DNA of 64,000 bases from Alphaproteobacteria bacterium (GTDB lineage: Bacteria > Pseudomonadota > Alphaproteobacteria > Rs-D84): positions 34,834-98,833 of the forward strand of contig WRHR01000002.1 in assembly GCA_009783145.1 (NCBI GenBank), written 5' to 3'. Made by a program: the position numbers and the translations under genes. The notes under the pieces are model-generated. The model saw only the letters and a program-made list of their open reading frames with translations. It searched no databases and was not told the origin of the DNA. Positions 2,597 to 61,946 of this stretch are shown here, piece after piece; position 1 is the first letter of the stretch; every line of letters starts with the position of its first letter.

Positions 2597-2640
2597 ATCT
2601 GATTCTCTCCTACTCTCTTACTCTTTTACTCTCATTTAAC
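2525..2640. repeat. Heptamer/octamer-array hairpin element, family C: (agagtaga)x4 / inverted (tactctc)
   Basis: gagtaagagagtagaagagtagaagagtagaaaag ... ctctcctactctcttactcttttactctc; left arm codes LLSFFSTLLLFYSLTL of the 1895-2596 product. Confidence 0.8.
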
Positions 2641-3456
2641 CCAAACCGCCACTTCGTTTTTATCCGCTTTGCGGCAGTAAGTCGCGGCGGATTCAAAGTA
2701 CCCGTTAACGCTGACGCGATCCGCCCAATCCAGCTTTACCGTCGCCAGCCAGCCGCAAGTCTTGAAATCCAGCCCATTCAGCACCAGCGCGAATTCGCGC
2801 ACTCCCGGATGGGCGAATACCGAGAAATCCGCACCCGCCAGCGGGCTTTTTTCTGTTTTCATCACACCAGATTTTACAAGATAGTCGGTGGAGATTCCCC
2901 CAAAATCACGCCGCGCGGCATACAGCAGTTTCGTATTGCTGGCAATCGCTTTCAAGTCTTCGACCGCAACCATGCGAATCTGGCGAGTGCGCACGACATT
3001 ATACATTGATATCGCGCCCGCAGTCATAACACCTGCGATTGCAAGAACGCCCAGCATCTCTATTAGCGAACGACCTGATTGCGACAGGTTGGAGGTTGGA
3101 GGTTGGAGGTTGGAGGTTATTGATTTTGTAGAACTTGAAAGCATCTTTTTTATCTCCTCACAGTCATTGTTGATATTGTTAAACCATTCTTCTGTCAGGT
3201 AATCATTATCTTTTAGCAATTCCAGCCAATACAAAGTTTCGGAACATTCTTTTAATGCTATGTATTGCTTATTTGCAAAATCTTTTCTGCTGCTGGCATA
3301 AGCAGCTTCTGCCAAATTAGCACCGATACTTGTCCCCGATCGTAAAATTTGTTTAGAAAGAATATATTCTTTTTTTTCATCACACAAAAATTTATATAAC
3401 TTTACAACTCGACTGGCAAACTTTTTACTCTTTGTAAAAATCATACTTTCTTTCAT
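2632..3456 (-). CDS. Chimeric ORF: N-terminal four-helix-bundle protein of the 23S-rRNA-IVS protein family (TIGR02436-like) + (TSNLQPP)x3 repeat linker + type IV pilin-like C-terminal half (GRSLIEMLGVLAIAGVMTAGAISMY prepilin motif)
   Basis: Residues 1-110 match the four-helix-bundle pattern (SIGANLAEA...FIALKECSETLYWLELL); AT-rich block 3125-3456; class-III signal motif internal to ORF. Confidence 0.5.
   Translation of the reverse strand: MKESMIFTKSKKFASRVVKLYKFLCDEKKEYILSKQILRSGTSIGANLAEAAYASSRKDFANKQYIALKECSETLYWLELLKDNDYLTEEWFNNINNDCEEIKKMLSSSTKSITSNLQPPTSNLSQSGRSLIEMLGVLAIAGVMTAGAISMYNVVRTRQIRMVAVEDLKAIASNTKLLYAARRDFGGISTDYLVKSGVMKTEKSPLAGADFSVFAHPGVREFALVLNGLDFKTCGWLATVKLDWADRVSVNGYFESAATYCRKADKNEVAVWVK
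3087..3118. repeat. (ggttgga)x4 tandem heptamer repeat, in-frame inside CDS 2632-3456
   Basis: ggttggaggttggaggttggaggttggagg encodes TSNLQPPTSNLQPP. Confidence 0.8.
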
Positions 3457-3460
3457 TTTT

Positions 3461-3492
3461 ACCTCCTACTTCCTACCTCTTACCTCCTACTT
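3461..3492. repeat. Family D (ggaagta/ggaggta) single arm between chimeric-gene start and dnaX stop
   Basis: acctcctacttcctacctcttacctcctactt. Confidence 0.6.
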
Positions 3493-6329: not shown

Positions 6330-9212
6330 TTACGGACATGACCCACCGGGTGTTTCCATTTCCAACTGAAAACATTTCGGCACACCATTCAGCTTGCCAG
6401 CCCGAGTTATATAGCTACATCTAAGTCCAGCCGCGACGCATCCTTGCGGACCTTCCAGGTATCCCGTGCAGCTTTCATCCATAAATACCCAAACATAGTC
6501 TTCTGAACTATACGTTGAATGGTGCTCGCCATCACCATCTGCATAAGTGAAGCCATATCCTATAAAACCACAGGCAGGATTTATTGCCGCCCCTATTGTA
6601 AAAAGCCCTGAATCGCATCCGAAGCCTTTTGCCGGACATTGCGAATTACGTTCAACACAAGCCGAATTCTGGCTGGAACCTTGTGGTACTCCGCATATAC
6701 TGCCCAGCCATGTCGTTTCGATTGAACAGCAATGGTTATTGTCTGAATTTGCAGAACAAGTGCAATTCTCAATAAGTTGGCCAATTTCGCATGGCGGATA
6801 AACGCAGGAATTGCCGTTCGACTCTTGCCCTGTCGGACAGCAATACTGATTAATACCGGAAGTGCTTACGTCGCCGGGGCAAGCGCAAGACCCATCCATA
6901 GGGAAGTTTGCCGTCGAGCACTTGGGCTTACAGCCGTCGTCCCATGCTTGCCCGGACGGACAGCAATGTCCATGACTGGCGTTGCTGCAAGAGCACTCGT
7001 CCGTAGCGGGTCCCGGGATCGGGCACGGAGGCTTGCCCGTAACGCAATTCATCCCGTTCCAAATCTGTCCGACACCGCAATCCGGCTGACAACGGTTGAG
7101 GTTAATGTTCCAAACTTCGCCCGGCTCGCAGACGCCGTACGGCAATTCGCAGCGTCCCGAGATTACCAGATACCCGGCTTCGCAGACGCAGCGCTCATTC
7201 ACATAGAATCTCTGCAGACCCGTGTTTGGATCCGTTTGATATATTTGCCCAGGCCTTGGAATCGGCGCACCGACCTGCAACGACACCCAAGATGAATAAT
7301 CCGGACACAGCATCGACTGATAGAAGATATCCGATATGCTTTCTATGCATGTGTTCGGCTCGTCTATCGGACAAGCAACTTGATCGTCCGAGAACACCGC
7401 ATAGCCGCAAGTCAGCGCAACGTTCCGACACGCTCCTTTCAGCACCGCGTACACATTGTTGATATTCGCGTTATTAGACCAAGAATTAATCTGCATAACC
7501 TGCTGCGAATAGCACGCCGAAATTTCCGCCATACAACTGGAAGCGTAATCCGATATGATCCTTTCCTGAGCGGCGCGGATGCTGACCATCGCCCGCTGGA
7601 TATAATTCACCAATATATTATTCTTGTTGTTATACTTGCCGCGGTCGTCGTAAGTAAATGCGCGGCACTTGTCCAAGACCGGGCGGCAAAGGCCGCTGTT
7701 CGCATTGTCCCCCATTCCTATCTTCGAAAGCAGATACCGCACGATGCACTTGCCGTTATTGTTTTGAGCGTCGCAGGCGGAATAGCCGGACATGCTCCAC
7801 GCGCTGTTGATAAAGTTCGCATCTATCAGCGAATTATCATAATTAACCATCATCTTTCTTATCATAGAAATATTCTGGCCCAGTATGACTTCGCCATTTT
7901 CGTCTATGAATCTTTTTGTCGGATCCAAGCATTTCGCCATGTCGGCGCCGCAAACCATGTCGTCCTTCATGCATTGCTCCAAGGCCCCGACGCAGCCCTT
8001 GGCGTCGTACGCATTGTGGTCCTGCAGCACGGCCAGACGCGCCTTTTGCAGCATCTGCGTTGCGCTGCGCACGTTGGATTTAAGGGTATCGTTCATCTTT
8101 TCCAATCCCTTTTCGTACGCGATGCAGTCCTTGTCTATCTCCACGTCATAGCGGCCCGTAACCTGCCCGGTGTTCGCGCCCTTGGCCTTGCATGCGTTTA
8201 TCACGGGCGCGCAGCGCTTTTGCGCCATTTTGAACAAGTCCGTCCCGCGAAGGTTCGCAAACGAGGTATTGTTGTTCAGGCTGAACATTTCCGTAAAGTC
8301 CGTATCCAAATCGAAGTCCAAATCCAAATCCAGTCCGAAGTTGTTGTTGCCTTCCGCCACAAAAGATTCTGGGGTGCGTATCAGCTTTTCGATATCCGAC
8401 AGCATTCTGCGCGATTGGGTTGTGTCGCGGGCGTTCTGCAGTTCCAGCTCCGCTTCGGTGGCGGACATAATCGCGCGGATTTCCGGAGCCGTCAGCCCGA
8501 CATAGCGGATGCGCTGCGCCACGTCGTTCAACTGGCTGTTCGCTTCCTTTACGGCGCTTTCCACTCGCGCGTAAGACGACAAGCGCCCCGAACAGGCGCA
8601 TCGCTTTTGATTCGCGTCGATTACCGCGCAGAACTGATCCATGCAATCCGTGTACTGCACCATGCACGAATCGGTCGCAGCGCTGGTTTCTTCCCAGTTA
8701 AGCGCAGGCGCAGCAGGCGCAGAGGTCGCCGCGCGCGCCGTCAGATTACGGTTTTCGGCGCTTATATTCGAACCGGTTTGAAGGTCCGTGCCGACAATTT
8801 TCGCCCGTCCTCCGACTTCCGCCGTAGTCGGGCGCAAGGTAACCCCCGCGCGCCGCATAGGCGCGGACGCGTTCAGGCTTGCGGCATCGGTGCGCGCGGC
8901 GCGCCCTACTTGACGCGCGGCTTCGGTTATCGGGCTGGCGCGTCCGGATGCGGCCGGGGCCGCGTTCGCAACTTGACGAGATACGACTGCGCCGCGAGGA
9001 GACGGTGTCGCAGCTTGGACGCCAACTGCCGCCGGCTGATTCGCCGTTACGCGCGATACAACAGCGCCTTGGGTTTCAGTCTGATTTTGCGCGGACGAAG
9101 CGGCTGTAACGCCAACCTGCTGGCCTGGAATCGCGCGCGACGGGGCAACGTCAGCGGCCAGCGCCATGCCAGCGCAAAGAGCAAAGAACAAAGAGCAAAG
9201 AGCAAGTCTTTT
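6330..9212 (-). CDS. Large secreted Cys-rich protein B (signal peptide, A/T/G/R-rich disordered region, conserved Cys core, C-terminal Cys-dense repeats)
   Basis: about 960 aa from MKRLALCSLFFALCAGMALA; paralogous to 9215-11356 (YTDCMDQFCAV...RCACSGRL vs YYTCMDEICTA...RCACAGRV). Confidence 0.6.
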   Translation of the reverse strand, partial: KRLALCSLFFALCAGMALAADVAPSRAIPGQQVGVTAASSAQNQTETQGAVVSRVTANQPAAVGVQAATPSPRGAVVSRQVANAAPAASGRASPITEAARQVGRAARTDAASLNASAPMRRAGVTLRPTTAEVGGRAKIVGTDLQTGSNISAENRNLTARAATSAPAAPALNWEETSAATDSCMVQYTDCMDQFCAVIDANQKRCACSGRLSSYARVESAVKEANSQLNDVAQRIRYVGLTAPEIRAIMSATEAELELQNARDTTQSRRMLSDIEKLIRTPESFVAEGNNNFGLDLDLDFDLDTDFTEMFSLNNNTSFANLRGTDLFKMAQKRCAPVINACKAKGANTGQVTGRYDVEIDKDCIAYEKGLEKMNDTLKSNVRSATQMLQKARLAVLQDHNAYDAKGCVGALEQCMKDDMVCGADMAKCLDPTKRFIDENGEVILGQNISMIRKMMVNYDNSLIDANFINSAWSMSGYSACDAQNNNGKCIVRYLLSKIGMGDNANSGLCRPVLDKCRAFTYDDRGKYNNKNNILVNYIQRAMVSIRAAQERIISDYASSCMAEISACYSQQVMQINSWSNNANINNVYAVLKGACRNVALTCGYAVFSDDQVACPIDEPNTCIESISDIFYQSMLCPDYSSWVSLQVGAPIPRPGQIYQTDPNTGLQRFYVNERCVCEAGYLVISGRCELPYGVCEPGEVWNINLNRCQPDCGVGQIWNGMNCVTGKPPCPIPGPATDECSCSNASHGHCCPSGQAWDDGCKPKCSTANFPMDGSCACPGDVSTSGINQYCCPTGQESNGNSCVYPPCEIGQLIENCTCSANSDNNHCCSIETTWLGSICGVPQGSSQNSACVERNSQCPAKGFGCDSGLFTIGAAINPACGFIGYGFTYADGDGEHHSTYSSEDYVWVFMDESCTGYLEGPQGCVAAGLRCSYITRAGKLNGVPKCFQLEMETPGGSCP

Positions 9213-11536: not shown

Positions 11537-11965
11537 TTACTCTTCGTCATTCGTTCCGACGACCTCTTCAATTTCTATCTTGCTTGCTTTCCATTCGGAT
11601 TTTTTAGCCTCGCATTTCTCGCCTCTATCGCCTTCTTTGGCGTCGCAATTCCATTCTTTTTTCATGCCGTCTTTTTTATCTTTCCATTTGGCTTTTTCCC
11701 CGGCTTTTTTATCCTTCCATTCTTTCTTCTTGCCTTCTTTTTTAGCTTTCATTTCGGCTTTCTTGGCATCTTTCGTACCTTTGCATTCCGTCTTTATGCT
11801 TTCGCGTTCTTGGGTCGCCTCTTCCGTGCCGGTGTACGATTTATCGGTAATCTCTACTGTCGCCGGCTCCTTTTTCTTGCCCAGGAAATCAAACATGCCG
11901 GCACTTGCCGCCGATATACCGATAACCAAAGCCAACCCCGAAATCATAACTTTTCTCATAAGCAA
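11537..11965 (-). CDS. Small secreted Lys/Glu-rich repeat protein (EWKDKKAGEKAKWKDKKDGMKKEW)
   Basis: 142 aa, signal peptide, internal K/E repeats with spaced Trp and Cys. Confidence 0.4.
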   Translation of the reverse strand: MLMRKVMISGLALVIGISAASAGMFDFLGKKKEPATVEITDKSYTGTEEATQERESIKTECKGTKDAKKAEMKAKKEGKKKEWKDKKAGEKAKWKDKKDGMKKEWNCDAKEGDRGEKCEAKKSEWKASKIEIEEVVGTNDEE

Positions 11966-16155: not shown

Positions 16156-19027
<2,872 letters not shown>

Positions 19028-19062
19028 TTTATCCAATGCTTGAAGAGTAGGTCGTAACGCGA

Positions 19063-19170
19063 GACGCGAGACACGAAACGCGAAAAAACCAACTGCTTCA
19101 AATTTGGTAAAATAACTTGAATGAGCTATAATCGCACGCGTCACGCATCTCGCGTTTCGCGTCTCGATTT
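19063..19170. repeat. Heptamer-array hairpin in the tRNA-23S spacer: (cgcgaga)x2(cacgaaa)(cgcgaaa) / inverted (tctcgcg)(tttcgcg)(tctcg)
   Basis: cgcgagacgcgagacacgaaacgcgaaaa ... cgtcacgcatctcgcgtttcgcgtctcg. Confidence 0.7.
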
Positions 19171-19889: not shown

Positions 19890-21585
<1,696 letters not shown>

Positions 21586-23430: not shown

Positions 23431-23520
23431 TGTCGTTCTAGTATACTAGAACGGCAAGTATAAAATAAAATGTCCATTATAACGGACAACGTTCATTATC
23501 GCGTACGACTTATGATTAGG
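23431..23520. repeat. Composite palindromic element: TTCTAGTATACTAGAA + TGTCCATTATAACGGACA + cgacttatgatta (copy 1)
   Basis: Homologous to 52131-52225. Confidence 0.7.
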
Positions 23521-25613: not shown

Positions 25614-25738
25614 ATTAGCGATTAGCAATTATCAATTAGCGATTAAAAATGCAACAATATGAAATGTCCAATATACTGGACAATGTTATTACCAGTTCCC
25701 CAATTGCTAATCGCTAATTGCTAATCGCTAATTCCTTT
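25614..25738. repeat. Heptamer-array hairpin element, family A (second copy) with central TGTCCAATATACTGGACA
   Basis: ttagcgattagcaattatcaattagcgatt ... ttgctaatcgctaattgctaatcgctaatt; shared gcaacaata flank. Confidence 0.85.
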
Positions 25739-30384: not shown

Positions 30385-30403
30385 TAAAAAACCTTCGGTT
30401 TTT

Positions 30404-30525
30404 AAGTAGGAAGTAGGAGGTAGGAAGTAGGAAATAAAAAGCAACAATAAACGATGTCCATTATAATGGACAACGATTACCTTACTCTATCACTTCCTAC
30501 TTCCTACCTCCTACTTCCTACTTCT
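30404..30525. repeat. Heptamer-array hairpin element, family D: (ggaagta)xn - TGTCCATTATAATGGACA - (tacttcc)xn
   Basis: taagtaggaagtaggaggtaggaagtaggaaat...cttcctacttcctacctcctacttcctacttc; palindrome at 30455-30472. Confidence 0.85.
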
Positions 30526-31062
30526 TGTTATTAACCATCCCAACAGATACGCCGCAACGCCGATGCTGATGCAAATGTCCGCCACATTGAACGCCGGCCA
30601 GTGAAATCCCCTCACGTGAAAATCTAAAAAGTCGATCACCGCGCCAAAGCGGATGCGGTCTATCAGATTCCCCAAGGCCCCGCCGATTATCAGCGACAAT
30701 GCTATGCGCTCGTACTTTTCTTTTGCGCGAGCGAACAGGTGATAAGCCAGAAAGCCTATTATCGCGCCCGTCAGCGCGATTATAACAAACGGCGCCGAGC
30801 TCCCCAGCGCACGGAATAATGAAAAGCTGGTTCCCGGATTCCAGACGAACACGAACTTGAACCAGGATGTCATAGGCAGACTCAGCAAGTCTGCGCCATG
30901 CACGACCATGCCTCCATTGCAAAATGGCGAGTGCAAGTCGCATGCGGCGCCGAACCAATGAAATCCGACCGGAGACATTGTCATAATCCAGCCCTTGGTC
31001 AATTGGTCGAGAACGACCACCAAAAGAATAAAGAATAAAGAATAAAGAATAGATTTCTTCAT
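30511..31062 (-). CDS. lspA: Lipoprotein signal peptidase II
   Basis: 183 aa, 4 TM, conserved Asp blocks; N-terminal MKKSILYSLFFIL coded by an (aagaata) array. Confidence 0.8.
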   Translation of the reverse strand: MKKSILYSLFFILLVVVLDQLTKGWIMTMSPVGFHWFGAACDLHSPFCNGGMVVHGADLLSLPMTSWFKFVFVWNPGTSFSLFRALGSSAPFVIIALTGAIIGFLAYHLFARAKEKYERIALSLIIGGALGNLIDRIRFGAVIDFLDFHVRGFHWPAFNVADICISIGVAAYLLGWLITRSRK

Positions 31063-33004: not shown

Positions 33005-33838
33005 TTATAGCACATTAGCGCGCGCTAGTTCAACAAACTTTTCCATAGGCAATTCTTCCGCGCGCTCTTGCCCGGTTAATCCGAATTGCGACCAATCGAC
33101 GCCGGGCATAATGCTGCGTATCATTTTCCTCCGCTGGCCGAAAAGCTTCGCGGTCAGCTTTTCAACGGATGACAGCTGAATTGTTTTTTTATCTTTCGGG
33201 ATTATCTGCACAACCGCGCTTTGGACTTTCGGCGCGGGGAAAAAAGCGGTATTCGGAATATTGAATAAAATCTTCGCGTCCGCAACCAAAGCGGTAAGAA
33301 CGCTCAGCCGGCCGTATTGCTTATCGCCGACGCGCGCGACGATTCTATCCGCCACTTCGCGCTGGAACATTAAGGTCATAGAGTGGAGAGTGGAGAGTGA
33401 AGAGTGTAGTTGGTGCAGCCACTGAATTAAAAGTTCAGTTCCGATATTATACGGAAGGTTGGAACAAATTGCTAAATCATCTGCACTCTTCACTCTCCAC
33501 TCTTCACTCTTGAAATATTTCAATGCGTCGCCATAAATAACTTCCAGGCGGCCGTCTGCGGCGTTCGAAATTTTTTTCAAAATCAGCCCGGTCGCACGGT
33601 CTTTTTCAATCGCGATAACTCGCGCGGCGCCGCACTCCAGCAAAGCGCGCGTCAGGCCGCCCGGCCCTGGGCCGACTTCGACAACCGTAGCGCCCTGTAT
33701 GCCCGGCACGCTGCGCGCTATTTTCCGCGTGAGGTTCAGATCGAACAGGAAATTCTGGCCCAGCTGCTTTTTGGGTTCCAGGCCCGCATCGCGCATCATT
33801 TCTGCAACTGGGGGAAGATTTAATAATTTTTCATTCAT
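33005..33838 (-). CDS. rsmA: 16S rRNA (A1518/A1519) dimethyltransferase
   Basis: SAM motifs VVEVGPGPGGLT, NLPYNI; contains a 28-bp inverted repeat pair in-frame. Confidence 0.85.
   Translation of the reverse strand: MNEKLLNLPPVAEMMRDAGLEPKKQLGQNFLFDLNLTRKIARSVPGIQGATVVEVGPGPGGLTRALLECGAARVIAIEKDRATGLILKKISNAADGRLEVIYGDALKYFKSEEWRVKSADDLAICSNLPYNIGTELLIQWLHQLHSSLSTLHSMTLMFQREVADRIVARVGDKQYGRLSVLTALVADAKILFNIPNTAFFPAPKVQSAVVQIIPKDKKTIQLSSVEKLTAKLFGQRRKMIRSIMPGVDWSQFGLTGQERAEELPMEKFVELARANVL
33379..33512. repeat. Inverted heptamer arrays (gagtgaa/gagtgga ... cactctt/cactctc) inside the rsmA coding sequence
   Basis: atagagtggagagtggagagtgaagagtgtag and ctgcactcttcactctccactcttcactcttg, 71 bp apart, bracketing the NLPYNI codons. 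Confidence 0.85.
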
Positions 33839-35863: not shown

Positions 35864-36976
35864 TCAATGAAACACAAAGCAATCTATCTGCTGCGTTTTG
35901 GCCGCCTGGCATGCGCTCTGCGCCGCGCTTTCCGACAGGCCGTTCGCACGCACGCGGAACATTCCGCTGGGGGAAGGCTCAACCACCGCTGACAGTCCTG
36001 TAATATTACGAACGCGCGTCACTTGCGATTCTGCGGCCGCCCGTGATCCGAAAGCACCAAATTGAACGCCAGTCCCGCCCGCGTTTTGCACGGGAACAAT
36101 TGCCGCGGGCTTGCTTAACGGCTTCGTTACGGCCACGGGCGGCGGCGCATAATTATTCTGCACCGCAACCGGCGCCGCGCCAGTTCCTAGTATTGTAAAT
36201 CCTTTATCCAGCATCCTTGTCGAAACCGCGGCGCGAATATCCTTGGTTTGCGCGCCCAGAACAACGCTCATCACGCGCCGACCGTCGCGTTTGGCTGTTG
36301 CCACCAGCGAATATTTGGACTTGTTCGTATATCCTGTCTTCATACCGTCGCATCCCGGATACGACGCCAGCAGCCGGTTCCCGTTGGTATAAGTCTGCCC
36401 GTTATAAGTCCAGCTTTGAATCCCGAAATATTTCCAATATTGCGGGAAATGCTTGTAAACCGCCATAGACAGCAATGCGATATCGCGCGCGCTTGACAGG
36501 TGGTCGTCGTCCGGCAATCCGGACGAGTTCTCGAAATTAGTCTTGGAAAGCCCGATTTCCGTCGCGACCTGTGTCATCAATGACGCGAAGTTTCCCTCCT
36601 TTCCACCCTTCAGGTTTTCCGCCAAAACCCGCGCGACATCATTCGCGCTGTGCACCGCGACGGCTTTTATCGCGTCTTCAACCCTTATCTTCGACCCCGC
36701 GGCCAGGCCCAGTTTTACAGGCAAAGCATTCGCCGCGCTTTGCGAAACGATTAAGTGGTCGTCCAGATTAAGACGCTTGTGCTCCAACGCGTCGAATGTC
36801 AGATACAGCGTCATGATTTTCGTAAGAGATGCCGGATAATTCAGGTCGTTCGCGTTCTCGGAATAAAGCACTTTGCCCGTATCCAAGTCCGCGACAAGCA
36901 CGGCGTTATAGTCGGCTGCAAACGCCGATACCGAAAGAATAAAGAATAAAGAATAAAGAATAAAGAATCTCTTCAT
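35864..36976 (-). CDS. dacA: D-alanyl-D-alanine carboxypeptidase (PBP5/6 class) with C-terminal SPOR domain
   Basis: SxxK (ASLTK), SxN (SAND), KTG motifs; C-terminal VQFGAF...SPOR-like; signal peptide MKRFFILYSLFFIL from a repeat arm. Confidence 0.8.
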   Translation of the reverse strand: MKRFFILYSLFFILSVSAFAADYNAVLVADLDTGKVLYSENANDLNYPASLTKIMTLYLTFDALEHKRLNLDDHLIVSQSAANALPVKLGLAAGSKIRVEDAIKAVAVHSANDVARVLAENLKGGKEGNFASLMTQVATEIGLSKTNFENSSGLPDDDHLSSARDIALLSMAVYKHFPQYWKYFGIQSWTYNGQTYTNGNRLLASYPGCDGMKTGYTNKSKYSLVATAKRDGRRVMSVVLGAQTKDIRAAVSTRMLDKGFTILGTGAAPVAVQNNYAPPPVAVTKPLSKPAAIVPVQNAGGTGVQFGAFGSRAAAESQVTRVRNITGLSAVVEPSPSGMFRVRANGLSESAAQSACQAAKTQQIDCFVFH

Positions 36977-46438: not shown

Positions 46439-49400
46439 TTATTTATTACGATTACGCACGCGTTCCATCAGAGTGAATATAGCCGGTGTGACCATGAAAG
46501 TCCAGAACAATGATGCCAGGATTCCGCCGCAAATAACCGCGGCCATGCTGCTTTTCATCCCGTCCACGGACCAAAGCTGCGGCACCATTCCGGCCGCAAC
46601 CGCAATCGTGGCCATCAGAATCATACGTTTTTTGTCGTTAAACTCCGCCCACAGCGCGCTTGTCCGCGATTCCCCCTGGTTTATCCTGGCAATCGTCGGC
46701 TCCAACAGCAGAATATTGTTGTTCACGACCAAGCCCACCAGCATGACTATGGCCAGCATCGCGGCCACATTGATGGTGGCCCCCGACAGGAACATCAATA
46801 TGAACACTCCGGAAAAGCTGGTGAGTATTCCCGTCGCAATCGTAAACGGATGCACCCAGGTATTCATCATCGCCGCCAGCAGCATAAAAGTCAAAATCGT
46901 CGCCAGCAGAAACGCCTGCCCGATTTCCCCGGTCGTCTCGGACTGGATTTCGCTCATCCCGCCGAACTGCGCGTAATAACCGGGCGCCCAGTCGATGGTT
47001 TTCAGCGCCGATTCTATCCTGCTCTGCACGGGACCTATGGTGCTTTTACCCAGATTGATATTTATTTCAGTAATGCGGTTTTTATCCAGGCGGCGGATAT
47101 CCGGCGTTGCTTGCGCGAATTTTATCTCGCCCAATTCCGACATCGGCACCAGGCCCTTTTGCGACGCGACGAACACGCTGTCGAACATCTCGCGATTTTT
47201 GAACGGCTTCGCGAATTCCAAGACTATCGGGTATTCCTTGCCCGCTTCCTTGTATTTGTAAGAGTCATTTCCAAACAATGCGGTTCGCAAGGCGGTGCCG
47301 GCGTACGCATTTTTTATTCCCCAGAAACTCATCGCGTCGGCGTCCGGAACAAACGTGATTTCCATGCCGGGGGCTTGCTGCGCGCGAACCGCGCTTTGGA
47401 TTTCCGGAATTCGGTTCAGCAGCTCTATGACCTGATCCGCGTATGCTTCGCGCTTTGTATCGTCTTCACCATTTATGTCCAAAATCATGTCGGACGAGTA
47501 ATCGCCGCCCATAGCTTCGCCCGCGCGAATCTGAATTTCCGCGTCCGGAATCTGAGACAATGCGGGCAGCATAACTTGGGCCAAGCGCTTGTCCGAAAGT
47601 TTTCTTTTCCCATACGGCACCAGCTCTACCTTTACGGTTACATTCTGAACGCCGCGCTCCCCGATTTTTACCGAAGTGGATTTTACTTCCGTAAATTCGC
47701 GCAGCTTTTCCTCGATCTGCAGCGCGATCTTTTCGGCCTTCGCATAAGAGCTTCCCGCCGGCGCCCGCGCCGTGACCGTGATTTGACTTGCGTCTATATC
47801 AGGCCTGAACTCGTTCCCGACCCAACGCATCGGAATCAAGCTGAGCACCAAAACAGCCGCGGCAATACCGACCGCTTGCCATGGTTTTTTCAACTGCCAA
47901 TCATAAATCGGTTTGAACCAAGAAAGAGAATTGTCATTTTTCTTTTCTTTATTCTTTATTCTTTTTTCTTTATTCTTTCTTAAAATCTTCGCGATCATCA
48001 TCGGCGTCAGGGTAAAGCTGAACATCAAAGACAATATCGTCAAAAACACGACGGTCAATCCAAACTGAGCCATAAACTGACCCGCAATCCCGCCCATGAA
48101 CGCGATTGGCAGAAACACGACTATATTCGTGCCCGTCGCCGCCAGGATCGGAACCACGACTTTTTTGGTGCCGTCGACCGCCGCTTGTTCCGGCGTTTTC
48201 CCGACATCTAATTCTTTCAGCGCCGCCTCTATCAGAACTATCGCGTTGGAGATCAAAGTCCCCAAAGCCGACGAGCACGCCAGCAAAGTCATCGCGTTAA
48301 TCGTAAATCCCGCCGCGTCCATAAACAGGAATCCCGCAACCAAAGATGCCGGTATCACAATGCCGGCTATTACCGTGGACCGCCAGTTGCGCGTAAAAAA
48401 TAAAAGCGTCAAAACAGTAAGGGCCAACCCCAAAACTATCCCAAGAATCGTGTTGTTTGTTTCCTTTGAAACAGCAACAGAAGAATCGGATATTATTTCC
48501 ATCCGCGCATCCGGATAGCGCGTCTGCATGTCTTTTTCCAGTGCGGGCAATTGCTTATGCAATTGGTTGGCAATCTTTATGGCATTTCCGTCAGTGGCTT
48601 TTACCACGGATAAAATCACGACCGGCTTGCCGTCATAACGCGCGCCGGTCTCGATATCGCGCGCGGCATCTTTGACATCCGCGATGTCGCGCAAGGCAAA
48701 GTTCTGGCCTTCGGCCGTAGTGATATGCAGGCCCTTGATATCGTCGACAGATTGGAATTCTCCAATAAAGCGTATGTTGTTGGAGTCCTGCCCCGCCTCT
48801 ATCTTTCCGCCCGGCACGTTCAGGTTATGGGCGGCCAGCGCCCCCACTATATCCATAACGGCAACGCCGCGCGCGGCCATCAGCTCTGGATTCATAAATA
48901 TGCGAACAGCGCGGCTTTCCCCGCCGAACAGAGAAACGGAGGCAACGCCCTTCACAGCCGTAATTTTATTCGCAAGCGCGTCGTTGACATAGAATTCCAA
49001 GTCGCGCGGGTTGGTCCCGGTCAGAACTATATCCACAACCGATTGCTGCAGAGGGTTCAGCTTTTCCACAACCGGCTGTTTTAATCCTTCGGGGAATTCG
49101 TTCGAAATCGCGTCCAGCTTTGCCTTCACTTCGGCCGCCTTGTCATTGACATTCACGCCGATGTTGAATTCCGCCATGACGAAGCCGCCGTTTTCAAAGG
49201 CTTGGGATTGTATGCGCTTTATTCCCGCAACTTCGGACATGGCATCTTCCGCTTTTTGAACGACCTGGGTTTCTATTTCCGCAGGAGACGCGCCGGGATA
49301 GACAAGCGTCGCCGTAACCATGGGCAGGTCTATGGGGGGTATGCGCTCCACATTCATTTTCGGGAACGCGACAATCCCCAGCACCACCCACAAAAGTACG

Positions 49401-49444: not shown

Positions 49445-49466
49445 TTTAAAAACCTTTGGTTTTATT

Positions 49467-49590
49467 AGGTAGGAGGTAGGAAGTTGGAGGTAGGAGGTAA
49501 GAGAGTAAAAGTTTTTTCTTTTAATTTATAGAATAAATTCTTAATCACCAACTTCCTACCTCCTACTTCCTACTTTCTACTTTTGTCCCT
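49467..49590. repeat. Heptamer-array hairpin element, family D with central ttggtgattaagaatttat core (inverted relative to the 53330-53462 copy)
   Basis: taggtaggaggtaggaagttggaggtaggaggtaagagagtaaaag ... accaacttcctacctcctacttcctactttctac. Confidence 0.8.
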
Positions 49591-52006: not shown

Positions 52007-52130
52007 GATTTATTGTCCTCTATAATTATTATAGATAATAATAATTATTACAGACAATAAAATAATTTGCAAGGAAAATTTTCATAAGCCGCGAATCGTA
52101 AGCCGTTAACGGATGGCTTGGCGATAATAT

Positions 52131-52225
52131 TTGCTATTCTAGTATACTAGAATAGCAAACATAAAACCAAATGTCCATTATAATGAACATTGTCCATTGT
52201 TGCATTCGACTTACGATTAACGATT
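52131..52225. repeat. Composite palindromic element copy 2: TTCTAGTATACTAGAA + TGTCCATTATAATGAACA + cgacttacgattaacgatt
   Basis: Homologous to 23431-23520. Confidence 0.7.
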
Positions 52226-52231
52226 CATGGC

Positions 52232-53311
52232 TTACGATTGCTTCAGGATTTCTTCAGCGATGTTAGCAACGGCATTGTTTTCAATCTTCGCCTTTGCCGC
52301 CATCTTTTTCAGGCGCGCCCCATTGCTAAACAATTCCTCCAGCGTTGCGGATAGCCACCTTGAAGTAAATTTGCTCTGCGGGATTGCAATGCCGCCGCCT
52401 TGCGAAGCAAAAACTTCCGCATTCGCCGCCTGGTCGGGGTTTATCCCCAACGGGACCAGAATCGCCGGACGGCCAACGGTCTGCAATTCCGCGACCGTGC
52501 TTGCGCCGCTGCGCCCTATCACCAAGTCCGCCGCCGCCACTTCCGATGCCATATCATGAATGAACGACAGCACGTTCGCCTTCACGCTGTTGCCGGCATA
52601 GAACCTTTGCAAGCGCGCGACGTTTTCCGGCCGGGTCTGATGCACTATGAACAGCTTCTTTACGATGGATGACGGAAGAAGGATGATGGACGACGGAACC
52701 ACGTCGTCCAAAATCTGCGCCCCTAACGAACCACCGGTGACAAGAAGACGGATGATGGATGATGGATGATGGATGATGGATGACATAAATTCTTTACGAA
52801 CAGGTAATCCTGTATAAACAACTTTCAACTTTCCATCATCCGTCATCCGTCTTCCATCATCCATTCCCTCCACCTTTGGAAAACTTGTCATCAAAGTATT
52901 TACCCAGCGCAGGGCGAATTTATTCGCGCGACCAATTGCCGCGTTCTGCTCGTGCAATAATGTCGGGATTTTCCAAACGCGCGCCGCCAAAATTGCAGGA
53001 ACGGACGCATAGCCGCCGAATGCCACAACTCTGTCCGGTCGGAAAACCATAAAGCGCAGCGTCAGAGCAACCGCCGAAAAGCCGATCTTCATCAATGCGA
53101 AGACTTGCTGCAACTTTCCCTTGGCGCCGACGCCGGACGCCCAAACCCAAGCGATTCCCGCGCGCGGAGGCTTATTCTTTTTCACCATATCCATAACGCG
53201 CGAATCGGTCGAGATTATCACGCGATTATGGCGCCGCACCAATTCTTCGGCAACGACCAGCGCTGGAAAAACATGCCCGCCGGTTCCCCCGGTCGCAATC
53301 CATATCTTCAT
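52232..53311 (-). CDS. murG: UDP-GlcNAc:undecaprenyl-PP-MurNAc-pentapeptide GlcNAc transferase
   Basis: GGTGGHVFPAL N-terminus, C-domain LLVTGGSLGA; linker holds an inverted (ggatgat) array element. Confidence 0.85.
   Translation of the reverse strand: MKIWIATGGTGGHVFPALVVAEELVRRHNRVIISTDSRVMDMVKKNKPPRAGIAWVWASGVGAKGKLQQVFALMKIGFSAVALTLRFMVFRPDRVVAFGGYASVPAILAARVWKIPTLLHEQNAAIGRANKFALRWVNTLMTSFPKVEGMDDGRRMTDDGKLKVVYTGLPVRKEFMSSIIHHPSSIIRLLVTGGSLGAQILDDVVPSSIILLPSSIVKKLFIVHQTRPENVARLQRFYAGNSVKANVLSFIHDMASEVAAADLVIGRSGASTVAELQTVGRPAILVPLGINPDQAANAEVFASQGGGIAIPQSKFTSRWLSATLEELFSNGARLKKMAAKAKIENNAVANIAEEILKQS
52748..52867. repeat. Inverted heptamer arrays (ggatgat)x5 ... (atcatcc)x4 inside the murG inter-domain linker, in-frame
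   Basis: gacggatgatggatgatggatgatggatgatggatgacat ... ccatcatccgtcatccgtcttccatcatccattcc; codes MSSIIHHPSSII and GMDDGRRMTDDG around the conserved GLPVR block. Confidence 0.85.
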
Positions 53312-53329
53312 AAAAAAACCTCCGGTTTC

Positions 53330-53462
53330 TATAAAGTAGGAGGTAGGAAGTAGGAAGTTGGTGATTAAGAATTTATATCTCGAAATAAAAGCTCTTACTC
53401 TCTTATTTCCTACCTCCTACCTCCTACCTCCTACTTCCTACTTCCTACTTTCTACTTCCACT
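53330..53462. repeat. Heptamer-array hairpin element, family D between ftsW and murG (right arm overlaps the ftsW 3' end)
   Basis: agtaggaggtaggaagtaggaagttggtgattaagaatttat ... ttcctacctcctacctcctacctcctacttcctacttcctactttctacttcc. Confidence 0.8.
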
Positions 53463-56486: not shown

Positions 56487-57793
56487 TTCTTCTTTCCCTC
56501 CGCAAAGATTTTTCGCCAGTCGGAAACTTGCTTTTTCGTATTATCCCAAATCTTTTTCAGGTCGCCGCTGACTTGCTTGCCGAACGACTCGTCTATCTTT
56601 CCGCCCATGTCTTCCGCAATCTTGGTCGCTTTATCCGCCAGATATGCGACCAGGCAGCCGACTATCAGGACCGGCATAAAGCCTTCGGATTGCACTGTCG
56701 GAACCTTGTCTCCCAAATCAGTTGTAACCACTCCGCCCAGCAATGCCGCGCCTATGGCCGCAACGACCGCGAGTATAATGAAGTAAATCACCGCCTGGAT
56801 GAACCTTTTTATCTGGTCGGGCAGCGAGGTATATTTGAAAATTCCCGCAAAGGCCGTAAATATGGTGGCCGGGATGCCTTCCAAGTTTGTGGCCTTCTTG
56901 CCGCCGAAGCATTCCGTAATAGCGGTAAACGGAAGCAGCATTATCGCCATGAACAAGTCCACTATCACGCCCAGCGCCAGCAAGGCGAACTTCCAGATAT
57001 TTATCGTGAAAATCACGACAAAGACAGCGCCCGCGACGAAAGTCAGCGCGCTGTGGCCGATCCCAAACCACATCCACTTGAAGCCCGCCGCGACGCAGGT
57101 ATAAAAGAATCCCGATAGACGCGTCGGCAGGCATAATAAATCCGCCGTGTAACGCGATGATACTATCCCGCCGCTATTACCCACAAACTGGCGGATCGCA
57201 TCGCAAGTATCGGGCAGCTTTGTCCCCGCCGCGCCCGCGACGGAATCCAGTATCAGGTTCGACATATACGCGCCGGCGCTTATTATTGGCCCGAAGATCG
57301 TCATAAAAATCTGGCCCGGATTGTTGGACAGCACCCACAGCCAGACGGAAATCAACAGCGCTTTCTTTGCGACCTCTACGCCCAACTTTTTAACATCACC
57401 CTGGCCTTTTATGAGATTATAAGCCTCGAACATTATCCAGAACGCGAACAGGGCCACCAGCAGGGTTTGCACGAACTCGAACAGAGAACGCTGCAGAGCG
57501 TCGCTGATGCGGGACAGGGCGCCGATAAAGGCCTTTCCCACGCGCGCTTCTATAGGAACGTAATCTTTTACCAGCGCTTTCTGAAAATTGCCCTGGAACG
57601 AATCTATGTCCAGCGACAGATTGCTCATAAGAAGTTTCTGTTTTTGTTCGTCGAGCCAAGAGCCGGTATTCCCACCAGCGACGATTTCGCCGGCTATGGC
57701 TTCATTATTAATCACAGGAGACAGAACATCATCGGCAAAGGCATTGCCGATGCAAAGAATAAAGAATAAAGAATAAAGAATAAATTTTTTCAT
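56483..57793 (-). CDS. VirB6/TrbL-like type IV secretion inner-membrane protein, paralog D
   Basis: Signal peptide MKKFILYSLFFILCIGNAFA (repeat-encoded), multi-TM core, hydrophilic C-tail; start taken at MKKFIL. Confidence 0.55.
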   Translation of the reverse strand: MKKFILYSLFFILCIGNAFADDVLSPVINNEAIAGEIVAGGNTGSWLDEQKQKLLMSNLSLDIDSFQGNFQKALVKDYVPIEARVGKAFIGALSRISDALQRSLFEFVQTLLVALFAFWIMFEAYNLIKGQGDVKKLGVEVAKKALLISVWLWVLSNNPGQIFMTIFGPIISAGAYMSNLILDSVAGAAGTKLPDTCDAIRQFVGNSGGIVSSRYTADLLCLPTRLSGFFYTCVAAGFKWMWFGIGHSALTFVAGAVFVVIFTINIWKFALLALGVIVDLFMAIMLLPFTAITECFGGKKATNLEGIPATIFTAFAGIFKYTSLPDQIKRFIQAVIYFIILAVVAAIGAALLGGVVTTDLGDKVPTVQSEGFMPVLIVGCLVAYLADKATKIAEDMGGKIDESFGKQVSGDLKKIWDNTKKQVSDWRKIFAEGKKK

Positions 57794-60665: not shown

Positions 60666-61946
60666 TTTTCCTTTTACCCACCCCAGCGCTTTCCCCGCCT
60701 TCTTGCCCCATTCGTTCACGTTCTTGTATGCTGTTTTGGTGTCCGCTTTCGCGTTATCGTACAGCTTGGTCATACTCTTATCCTTATCGGCGCCCGTATA
60801 TTTCATCAGTTGCTCTTTCGTCTCGTCAAAGATTTTGAACATCAAAAAGAACGTAAGCAGCGCGGACAGCCAGACGATGGAATGCCCTCCGAATCCCATC
60901 GCCCCGTCCCCGTTCCCCGAGAATGCGGGACCGTTAAAGTTAAACAAGGCGCGCACCGCCGCGATATTGATCGCCAATATAAACACGCATGCAATCATAG
61001 TTATAACCAGCTTCTTCAAGCTGTCTATTATACCCCCGAATGCGGGCCACGGATCAATCCATTTATCCGAGTCTTTCGCAACAAACATCAGGACTTTGAA
61101 CGGGTACAGCATCAAGGCCATTCCGAACTCGAAGATGCCCTGGATTATCAACAATGCCATAAAGAAGTTGCTGGACACAAAAGCAAATACCAGGAAAATC
61201 CCCGTAATCAGATTCAATAAATCCCGCCCGCCGTTCGGGACAAGATTGGCCATTCCAGTCAAGCCGGATGTTATGAATGTCAGCCCGCGCTTTATTATCT
61301 GATTATTGACATGGGTTATATCGGCGACGGGTTGGACCAGGAATTGGCAACTTTCTTTTGAGATATACTCTTTTTTTATGATGTTTTCCGGGCATTCAAT
61401 CTGCCGCGCGCCGGCGAACTCATTATTTTTATTTATGATTTCGGAAATGCTGTGCGTATAAAGCGCGCCAAAGCGCAGGAAAGGATCGACCACGACTTGC
61501 GTGACATATTGGGGCTTTACCTGCAAAAGCAATCCGGCGGCGATGATTCCGCGCAAGGCGGGCTTTACCAGGTCCTCGGAAATTTTCAGCGCGGACGCTT
61601 TGCCTTCCCACATCTGTCCGCCTTTCATTCCGAAAAAGGACAGCCAGCTTGGCGGCAGATACATCTTGACCAGATACATTCCGATAAAAAAGCCCAGCCA
61701 TCCCCAAACGAACAAGTAAATAATCCCGTCGCCCTTGCCGACAAAGAACTCGTACCCCGCCATAGCGATGGACATGAACGAGTCCAAAACTATGGGAACA
61801 AACGGGGACAAGTCCAGGCCGTCCACCAGCCCCCAAGCGGCATGCGCCCCAAGGGGCGCAGAGCATAGAGCAAAGAGCAAAGAGCATAGATAAAAGAGTT
61901 TTCTCGAGAATTTCATCCAATCCTGATTATAGCATAAAAAGCCCAA
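60663..61946 (-). CDS. VirB6/TrbL-like protein, paralog A (true start probably MKFSRK about 61913)
   Basis: Signal peptide LFYLCSLLFALCSAPLGAHA, CQFLVQPVADI motif, polytopic. Confidence 0.55.
   Translation of the reverse strand: MGFLCYNQDWMKFSRKLFYLCSLLFALCSAPLGAHAAWGLVDGLDLSPFVPIVLDSFMSIAMAGYEFFVGKGDGIIYLFVWGWLGFFIGMYLVKMYLPPSWLSFFGMKGGQMWEGKASALKISEDLVKPALRGIIAAGLLLQVKPQYVTQVVVDPFLRFGALYTHSISEIINKNNEFAGARQIECPENIIKKEYISKESCQFLVQPVADITHVNNQIIKRGLTFITSGLTGMANLVPNGGRDLLNLITGIFLVFAFVSSNFFMALLIIQGIFEFGMALMLYPFKVLMFVAKDSDKWIDPWPAFGGIIDSLKKLVITMIACVFILAINIAAVRALFNFNGPAFSGNGDGAMGFGGHSIVWLSALLTFFLMFKIFDETKEQLMKYTGADKDKSMTKLYDNAKADTKTAYKNVNEWGKKAGKALGWVKGK

Follow-up and report, generated by a model that had tools for sequence, protein, structure and literature searches.

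Tandem arrays of 7-nucleotide (nt) units have been described in Xanthomonas (GGGAATC) and Nostoc (GGGGAYT) (Rehm et al. 2015, PMC4692102), and the paired arrays of Xanthomonas are the nearest precedent for the structures reported here. Each Xanthomonas genome holds 70-75 convergent pairs of arrays on opposite strands that are potential stem-loops (PMC4692102), and such convergent pairs are shared by the DNA studied here. Heptamers are the commonest class of long simple-sequence repeat (SSR) in many bacteria and are ascribed to polymerase slippage (PMC4679880 and PMC4692102, citing Mrazek 2007), and template switching makes and maintains hairpins and homogenizes the arms of inverted repeats (PMC8794818, PMC8604942, PMC5941160). 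Here we describe three heptamer arrays, one of them complementary to the other two, that lie in frame within murG in a 64,000-nt stretch (the window) of contig WRHR01000002.1, from an alphaproteobacterium of the Rs-D84 lineage. murG is an essential, single-copy cell-wall gene. The murG arrays are one case of a lineage-wide trait and not a device specific to murG, and we lean towards their being the local product of a DNA-level process of heptamer slippage and inverted templated copying, filtered at the protein level. Our literature search, whose coverage was incomplete, found no account of inverted heptamer arrays with many units, whether in Alphaproteobacteria or within coding sequence, an absence that is not proof.

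Three heptamer arrays within murG

The window MurG is identical (100%) to MCL1891872.1 from an uncultured alphaproteobacterial metagenome-assembled genome (MAG), carries the PF03033 and PF04101 domains (Glyco_transf_28 N and C) and matches the solved MurG structure 3s2u with E = 3.9e-41; its genomic setting is the dcw cluster, in the order mraY-ftsW-murG. The initial annotation had reported two inverted arrays that flank the conserved G-x-PVR block just upstream of the GGS motif. Both were recovered there by Tandem Repeats Finder (TRF) and a repeat finder, in frame in the open reading frame (ORF) of 359 amino acids (aa), and a third arm, array C, lies beyond the GGS motif. The features of the locus are:

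52232-53311, minus strand: murG coding sequence, 359 aa (NCBI MCL1891872.1), which hosts arrays A, B and C
52832-52864, minus strand: array A, encoding GMDDGRRMTDDGK (residues 149-161, codons 52829-52867)
52784-52831, minus strand: loop of the A-B hairpin, encoding KLKVVYTGLPVRKEF, the native conserved G-x-PVR block at the domain junction
52744-52783, minus strand: array B, encoding MSSIIHHPSSII (residues 176-187), (ATCATCC) x5 on the coding strand
52718-52738, minus strand: codons of TGGSLGA, the glycine-rich motif of the C-domain, flanked by arrays B and C (coordinates derived from the ORF)
52664-52698, minus strand: array C, encoding VPSSIILLPSSIV (residues 205-217), downstream of TGGSLGA, with the sequence GATGGATGACGGAAGAAGGATGATGGACGACGGA

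Array A reads GGATGAT, GGAAGAC, GGATGAC, GGATGAT, GGAAAG on the coding strand; on the plus strand it is TCCATCATCCGTCATCCGTCTTCCATCATCCAT, with four units of which two are exact, and TRF assigns it 4.7 copies. Array B is the most regular of the three, with (GGATGAT) x4.9 on the plus strand at 52750-52783 and 100% matches by TRF, and one degenerate unit extends it to 52744. Array C has about 4-5 degenerate units (GTCGTCC, ATCATCC, TTCTTCC and GTCATCC on the coding strand) and mirrors arm A, the GGAAGA variant unit included. Arms A and B are complementary at 28/31 bp and lie 48 nt apart, slightly more than the 45 bp given initially, and arms A and C are complementary at 29/34 positions (85%) across 133 nt. 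A three-unit pattern allowing at most three mismatches has seven matches against 0.00 expected from 100 shuffles.

Folded as RNA, the 231-nt array region has a predicted energy of -98.6 kcal/mol (z = -7.8), and folded as DNA -50.9 kcal/mol (z = -7.7); in both cases none of 200 shuffles folds as well. In the minimum free energy (MFE) structure the A-B stem is near-perfect over about 31-36 bp, with a small inner hairpin within the loop. The Rfam scan of the window returned only rRNA and tRNA, with no known RNA family at murG. Programmed frameshifting was considered and rejected, as the ORF runs on without a break and no unit has the form of an X XXY YYZ slippery sequence.

The ORF is intact across the arrays and every MurG motif is kept, so that a palindromic repeat is carried in frame without disruption. 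Residues Y166-R172 (YTGLPVR) between arms A and B are invariant in the MurG alignment, as are T192-G197 between arms B and C. The G-x-PVR block reportedly forms the junction of the N- and C-domains in the E. coli MurG structure of Ha et al. from 2000. Two further assemblies contain the region unchanged, arrays included: an ENA contig (ERZ27257320) matches the window over 2080 nt at 100%, and a Logan contig (SRR6220664) over 1633 nt at 100%. L006 and L007 are identical to the window. Unit number does not differ among the three assemblies, whose read sets may overlap such that full independence is not assured.

Arrays of other units at the same murG sites in relatives

Homologous arrays built from other units are present in at least eight independent metagenomic relatives, the closest non-identical relative available having 79% MurG identity. 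The murG sites of the array-bearing relatives are as follows, with MurG identity to the window and the matched positions of the pair:

L009 and L010 (77%): A is (GGCAGAA)n and its partner is C, (TTCTGCC)n, with no B array; 29/33
L094 (71%): A is (GGCAAAA)n and its partner is B, (TTTTGCC)n; 30/34
L002 (67%): A is of the GTAGACA type and its partner B of the TGTCTAC type; 21/28
L041 (about 65%): A is nested, with an inner (CAGTCGC)n that corresponds to an inner B of (GCGACTG)n, and an outer GGCRTAG that corresponds to an outer C of (CTTATGC)n
L008, L091, L092 and L093 (72-79%): arrays are present and their pairing is decayed (weak); the unit in L091 is GTCAGTC

At least six different units thus occupy the same murG sites across lineages as complementary pairs, GGATGAY/ATCATCC being that of the window. 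Wherever A is enlarged a complementary partner is present, and the complementarity measure is 14-26 in array-bearing relatives versus 5-11 in about 40 array-free ones. The initial picture of two arrays in a murG linker was therefore too narrow, as there is a third arm, A pairs with C in L009 and L010, and the arrays extend genome-wide.

The relative L095 (GCA_009784275.1, WRCA01000004.1) has an array-free MurG of 347 aa without the A insert and without 4 aa of C. In a rough midpoint-rooted neighbor-joining tree without support values, computed with A, B and C masked, L095 is nested in the array-bearing clade as the sister of L009/L010, and because of this position it most likely lost the A insert and the 4 aa of C secondarily. 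A second relative, L096, is array-rich genome-wide and has no arrays in murG. From the loss in L095 and the absence in L096, the arrays are evidently dispensable for MurG.

Insertion, recoding and coding constraint

Segment lengths were compared across about 45 clade relatives with DNA. The site A region, from the LMxSF anchor to YTGLPVR, spans 21 aa in the window versus a baseline of 14-15 aa, and site A is about 10 aa longer than in the MurG proteins of P. aeruginosa and Acinetobacter (3s2u, 7d1i). In contrast to A, sites B and C show little or no change in length: the site B region (PVR to TGGS) has 19 aa as in the baseline, and the site C region (GGSxGA to HQTRP) has 25 aa, against a baseline of 22 or 25 aa. 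By these comparisons site A is a 6-7 aa insertion, equivalent to about three heptamers, and B and C are native in length and recoded. The earlier proposal of in-place replacement thus holds for B, which matches about 40 array-free relatives in length, and fails for A, a true insertion; likewise the MurG length of 359 aa, described as normal, is 11-12 aa above the 347-348 aa typical of the clade, so that the description is loosely true at most.

Array C aligns to native residues of 3s2u and falls in the first C-domain helix (residues 199-217), a helix of confident predicted local distance difference test (pLDDT) values in the AlphaFold2 model. This model, built from an 18-sequence alignment, has a mean pLDDT of 68.5 and values below 50 for residues 122-183, which include A and B; it was used for site C only and is too weak for placing A and B in three dimensions.

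Whichever of the three frames is read, a heptamer array encodes an identical 7-residue repeat. (ATCATCC)n reads IIHHPSS, and its complement (GGATGAT)n reads G*WMMDD, such that a pure array in the orientation of arm A would place a TGA stop in frame at every third unit. Arm A departs from the repeat at exactly those places, with T to A changes in both unit 2 (GGAAGAC) and unit 5 (GGAAAG), and avoidance of the in-frame TGA accounts for arm A being degenerate while arm B is perfect. Arm C mirrors the first of these altered units (TTCTTCC), whereas arm B does not. Stop-avoiding units are also found in arm 1 of the rsmA pair described below (GAGAGTG, giving TGG) and in arm A of L002. The arrays are evidently translated sequence under purifying selection. 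Because C has its native length and its pattern P-x-x...L-P-x-A-L is kept in array-free relatives, we infer that C probably served as the template for A and that the building or homogenization of B came afterwards.

A genome-wide heptamer trait

The window contains 37 arrays of period 7, against 6, 3, 3 and 0 arrays of periods 5, 6, 8 and 9, respectively. Most are paired, in about 16 inverted pairs whose stems have 21-30 matched bp and whose loops span 6-340 nt, and they are built from at least 12 unrelated units (AATTAGC, TAATGAC, AAAGAAT, ATTTACG, GGATGAT and others), none with G3 tracts. The window carries 0.39 arrays/kb, its close relatives 0.44/kb, and L002 and L041 together 0.57/kb. Density is as low as 0.011/kb in a gut/rumen clade of 60-69% identity (186 kb) and 0.005/kb in distant relatives (204 kb). 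L095, although syntenic with the window from mraY to comEC, has one array in 21 kb and compact operon junctions. As a close, syntenic and array-free genome it offers a natural control for the cause of the trait.

More than half of the arrays (23/40) lie in the non-coding portion that makes up ~10% of the window, 13-14 are coding and four are in the rRNA operon. Those on the coding side fall in signal peptides and variable loops and those in rRNA at expansion sites; others occupy intergenic gaps and 5′ untranslated regions (UTRs), and the intercistronic hairpins sit just 5′ of Shine-Dalgarno sequences. Unit families recur at several loci of one genome (AAGTAGG four times, AAAGAAT five times and ATTTACG four times). 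One such hairpin lies directly upstream of murG:

53330-53457, minus strand: hairpin of (AAGTAGG)n and (CCTACTT)n that fills the ftsW-murG gap

The ftsW-murG gap is 140 nt in the window; in the syntenic L095 it measures 2 nt, and in L010 the two genes overlap. The mfp-acrB gap, with a hairpin at 49463-49583, is 118 nt versus an 8-nt overlap in L095. Both junctions carry hairpins of other units in L091, L093 and L094, and the unit is specific to the genome at both, being of the AGGTAGG type in the window and of the TAGTCAW type in L091 (4889-4980 and 8565-8601), which suggests homogenization between loci within a genome.

The three hairpins of the AAGTAGG family also share a flanking mini-palindrome, AAACC-NNN-GGTTT (30389-30403, 49448-49462 and 53315-53329), which on the mRNA strand holds the GGAGG/GAAGG Shine-Dalgarno sequence of the downstream gene.

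A second essential gene, rsmA, which encodes the 16S rRNA dimethyltransferase, contains an intragenic pair:

33005-33838, minus strand: rsmA/ksgA, with arms at 33380-33406 and 33480-33511 that bracket the catalytic NLPY

The (AAGAGTG/GAGAGTG)n arm gives the peptide KSEEWRVKSAD, and the (CACTCTY)n arm gives HSSLSTLHS. RsmA relatives have 7-residue periodic peptides of other units at the same two sites, and three of these (P0162, P0160 and P0150) carry MTDDG... with SSIIxHPSS, the unit family of the window murG.

Other arrays and repeats in the window

Arrays are also found within and next to the rRNA genes. The 23S rRNA has an insertion at 18359-18503 with arrays at 18394-18418 and 18444-18472, at Rfam model position about 583, which we take to be helix 25, the classic site of intervening sequences (IVSs). 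The 16S rRNA, 1697 nt long, has a 168-nt insertion at about 21340-21507, near model position 80 (helix 6/V1), that includes an 8-mer array at 21367-21401, and an array pair (19053-19166) is located just upstream of the 5′ end of the 23S gene.

A gene for a 23S rRNA IVS protein (2632-3456, minus strand; PF05635 over residues 3-107, E = 4.7e-31) lies between inverted arms at 3086-3118 and 3457-3490, and its AGGAGGT Shine-Dalgarno sequence is supplied by the upstream heptamer arm. No stop interrupts its ORF ahead of the (AACCTCC)n arm, and the frame continues into a pilin-like N-terminal-methylation segment (a weak PF07963 match, below cut-off, at residues 126-149). L096 shows the same design, with a PF05635/bAvd-like gene (7075-7523, E = 2.7e-35) between mraY and ftsW that is flanked by (GTAATCG)n and (CGATTAC)n.

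Seven arrays encode the cores of signal peptides (969-1003, 2531-2567, 9171-9205, 31023-31051, 36934-36968, 57754-57784 and 61854-61890). The hydrophobic cores of several unrelated exported proteins are made in this way, (ATTCTTT)n giving ILYSLFF and (TTGCTCT)n giving LLFALCS. These arrays are mostly unpaired; for two of them (2531-2567 and 36934-36968) a partner arm lies in the 5′ UTR, such that the start codon is enclosed by the hairpin. A further array (47929-47978) lies inside an RND pump gene.

A palindrome with TATAAT inside it, TTGTCCATTATAATGGACAA, is present in five copies against 0.01 expected (168-187, 23470-23489, 25664-25683, 30454-30473 and 52171-52190). Three copies serve as loops in heptamer hairpins whose stems are built of different units; upstream of the remaining two is a further palindrome, TTCTAGTATACTAGAA, and one of these two copies lies between murG and marR. 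The palindrome may be a promoter/operator module. Directly 5′ of the marR start there is a 19-nt direct repeat (52022-52060, ATAATTATTACAGACAATA x2.1), which may be an operator. A T-rich tandem repeat of 33/66 nt at 11649-11799 (2-4 copies, 68-75% matches), within the minus-strand ORF 11537-11965, is unrelated to the heptamers.

Origin of the murG arrays

We lean towards an explanation in which the murG arrays arise from a lineage-wide process acting on DNA. Replication slippage would expand, contract and homogenize the heptamer units within one arm, an inverted copy would be written into a nearby site, presumably by intra- or inter-strand template switching (quasipalindrome correction), and the two arms would then keep correcting each other. 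Purifying selection on the protein would set where arms survive and what they look like. In murG the arms appear to occupy three permissive segments around the junction of the N- and C-domains: A in the loop that precedes the final N-domain strand, B in the linker joining the domains and C in the C-domain's first helix. The conserved G-x-PVR and GGS motifs between them are left untouched. The arm in sense orientation is imperfect exactly where a pure array would give an in-frame TGA, and the encoded peptides would be tolerated passengers.

Several observations are consistent with this proposal. The loops are native functional sequence: the murG loop holds G-x-PVR and the rsmA loop NLPY, and others hold start codons or a promoter-like palindrome. 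In murG and rsmA such native loops exclude the insertion of one contiguous piece. Both B and C, nearby, match insert A in reverse complement, and inserts at site A in L009, L010, L094, L041 and L002 are likewise reverse complements of sequence close by. Variant units are mirrored between arms, as in the pair at 30404-30524 with 30/30 bp matched. In three intergenic hairpins the loop modules are homologous as far as the start of the arms, and the arms align in register, yet these arms differ at the same two positions of each unit (AATTAGC versus AAGTAGG) with the complementary change in the partner arm. Such register-aligned differences favor concerted evolution within and between arms, and DNA-level homogenization is favored because selection for pairing alone would not keep tandem units identical. 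Among mismatches in 17 stems, G.U-compatible ones number 14 on the transcribed strand versus 16 on the opposite strand, and a further 24 mismatches are of different kinds, a test of low power given its 30 informative mismatches. Strand-symmetric mismatches, together with the loss or absence of arrays in relatives, argue against a required function of the hairpin.

Other observations weigh against slippage and inverted copying. No single slippage or template-switch event is seen, the three copies of the strain being identical, and the 7-nt period is left unexplained. Complementarity at the murG sites persists across lineages whose MurG proteins are only 67-79% identical, which selection on structure would fit equally well, and the G.U comparison has low power. 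The sharp contrast between L095 and the window is also unexplained and might mean a dedicated factor rather than a passive mutational bias, and the recurrence of unit families within a genome, with different units at orthologous positions of other genomes, hints that units are exchanged among loci or are mobile.

One rival explanation is a functional RNA stem in the murG/dcw mRNA that would serve RNase III in processing or decay, or make translation pause at the MurG domain boundary, with the pairing itself under selection and so maintained through the replacement of arm sequence. The folding prediction for the array region is very stable, and the maintenance of complementarity with at least six units at the same sites would count as covariation in RNA biology. 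Hairpins also lie at classical places of RNase III action (the insertions in 23S helix 25 and 16S helix 6, and around S23p ORFs), intercistronic hairpins stand directly 5′ of Shine-Dalgarno sequences, and in the 23S IVS of Coxiella tandem heptamers are found where RNase III acts (PMC4990558). We nonetheless consider such a stem unlikely, since the transcribed strand has no excess of G.U-compatible mismatches, the partner of arm A alternates between B and C among lineages, and pairing is decayed in L008 and L091-L093, lost in L095 and absent from the murG of the array-rich L096. Nor does pairing selection explain the tandem heptamer nature of each arm, and it would be costly for an essential gene to have a stem open to cleavage within its coding sequence. 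Remnants of mobile palindromic elements of the MITE (miniature inverted-repeat transposable element), Rickettsia palindromic element (RPE) or IVS type, inserted in frame and with the S23p hairpins as possible master copies, would fit the unit families found at several loci per genome, the genome-specific units in orthologous gaps, the loop module common to three elements and the PF05635 (S23p/bAvd-like) genes inside such hairpins in the window and in the dcw operon of L096; RPEs, moreover, insert in frame in another alphaproteobacterial group (PMC1779305, PMC10969869). This origin is less probable still, as YTGLPVR and NLPY between the arms are native and invariant such that no contiguous element was inserted, B and C keep their native length, target-site duplications and shared termini are not seen, and each lineage has its own units at murG; a transposase was not identified, though there was no exhaustive search for one.

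A phase-variable (contingency) locus, in which 7-nt slippage would switch murG on and off or vary the encoded peptide, is suggested by the perfect five-unit repeat of array B in a coding region and by the arrays in signal-peptide cores, which recall the CTCTT repeat of Neisseria opa, as cited in PMC4692102. It is very improbable: murG is essential and single-copy such that frameshifted cells would die, copy number does not differ in the three assemblies (which may share reads), arms A and C are degenerate, and the inverted pairing is left without a reason. A sequencing or assembly artefact in the repeat, which the initial annotation had named as the finding that would undo it, merits almost no weight. 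Short-read assemblers can mis-resolve tandem repeats and the source is a MAG, but the three assemblies are identical, the ORF is intact, homologous arrays of other units recur in the independent relatives, and the arrays, at 33-40 nt, are shorter than a sequencing read. Finally, an undescribed and active hairpin-writing system in insect/animal gut Alphaproteobacteria can be tentatively imagined, although we think it improbable, in which a dedicated factor, with S23p/bAvd-like four-helix-bundle proteins as one candidate, installs and homogenizes mirrored heptamer arrays. Its targets would be operon junctions, 5′ UTRs, signal peptides, rRNA and in-frame sites around catalytic motifs, each genome would have its own unit repertoire, and relatives lacking the factor, such as L095, would have purged their arrays. 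The bAvd-like genes also brought to mind a mechanism like that of diversity-generating retroelements (DGRs), which is speculation: no pair of template and variable repeats was seen, and a reverse transcriptase was not searched for.

MurG and RsmA indicate that essential enzymes can hold long in-frame hairpin repeats with arms on either side of invariant catalytic motifs, the arms remaining complementary through many replacements of their sequence. The arrays yield 7-residue periodic peptides in loops and signal peptides, a cheap source of variation in protein length and sequence. They offer a natural system for asking how long perfect stems arise and persist, by template switching or by compensatory selection, and why 7-nt repeats are the favored long microsatellite in bacteria. 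They also carry a warning for annotation, in that complementary turnover of a stem, the usual proof of a functional RNA, may here result from homogenization at the DNA level.

Comparison with known systems

The arrays of Xanthomonas resemble those of the window in being tandem 7-nt arrays that are spread genome-wide, mostly intergenic with 7-11% intragenic, and conserved in position between species while variable in length and sequence (PMC4692102). They differ in belonging to one G-rich, quadruplex-forming family (GGGNATC), whereas here there are at least 12 unrelated and mostly non-G-rich units in 64 kb. Unlike in Xanthomonas, pairs are placed in frame in essential genes around catalytic motifs and also in rRNA, a given site carries unlike units from one lineage to the next that nonetheless stay complementary, and the hosts are gut Alphaproteobacteria.

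Documented template-switch or quasipalindrome events write an in-place reverse-complement copy of neighboring sequence, can give perfect stems in one event, homogenize inverted arms and can occur in coding sequence, and in this they resemble the process proposed here (PMC8794818, PMC5453318, PMC8604942, PMC5941160). These are isolated events with non-repetitive arms, whereas here the arms are tandem heptamers, pervasive at about 0.4-0.6 arrays/kb and with homogenized units. RPEs are likewise palindromic and in frame in alphaproteobacterial coding genes, where surface or variable segments tolerate them, and they are also present in RNA genes (PMC1779305, PMC10969869). RPEs, however, are contiguous elements of 100-150 bp with a family consensus, in contrast to arms that flank native codons, have no fixed sequence and consist of heptamers.

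Contingency loci such as Neisseria opa (CTCTT; cited in PMC4692102) and the SSRs of H. influenzae (PMC12721329) also have a unit that is not a multiple of three in coding sequence, and the signal-peptide arrays of the window resemble opa in their placement. They differ in that murG is essential, its arrays are paired and inverted, and no copy-number variation is seen. The Coxiella 23S IVS forms a stem-loop in an rRNA helix with an S23p (PF05635) ORF in the loop, and has heptamers (GACAGAT x3) of strain-variable copy number at the RNase III site (PMC4990558). The window has parallels to both in its 23S helix-25 heptamer hairpin and in the S23p gene between heptamer arms. The Coxiella repeat is a short, one-sided direct repeat and is not mirrored, whereas the murG pair lies in the coding region of an mRNA and encloses a native loop.

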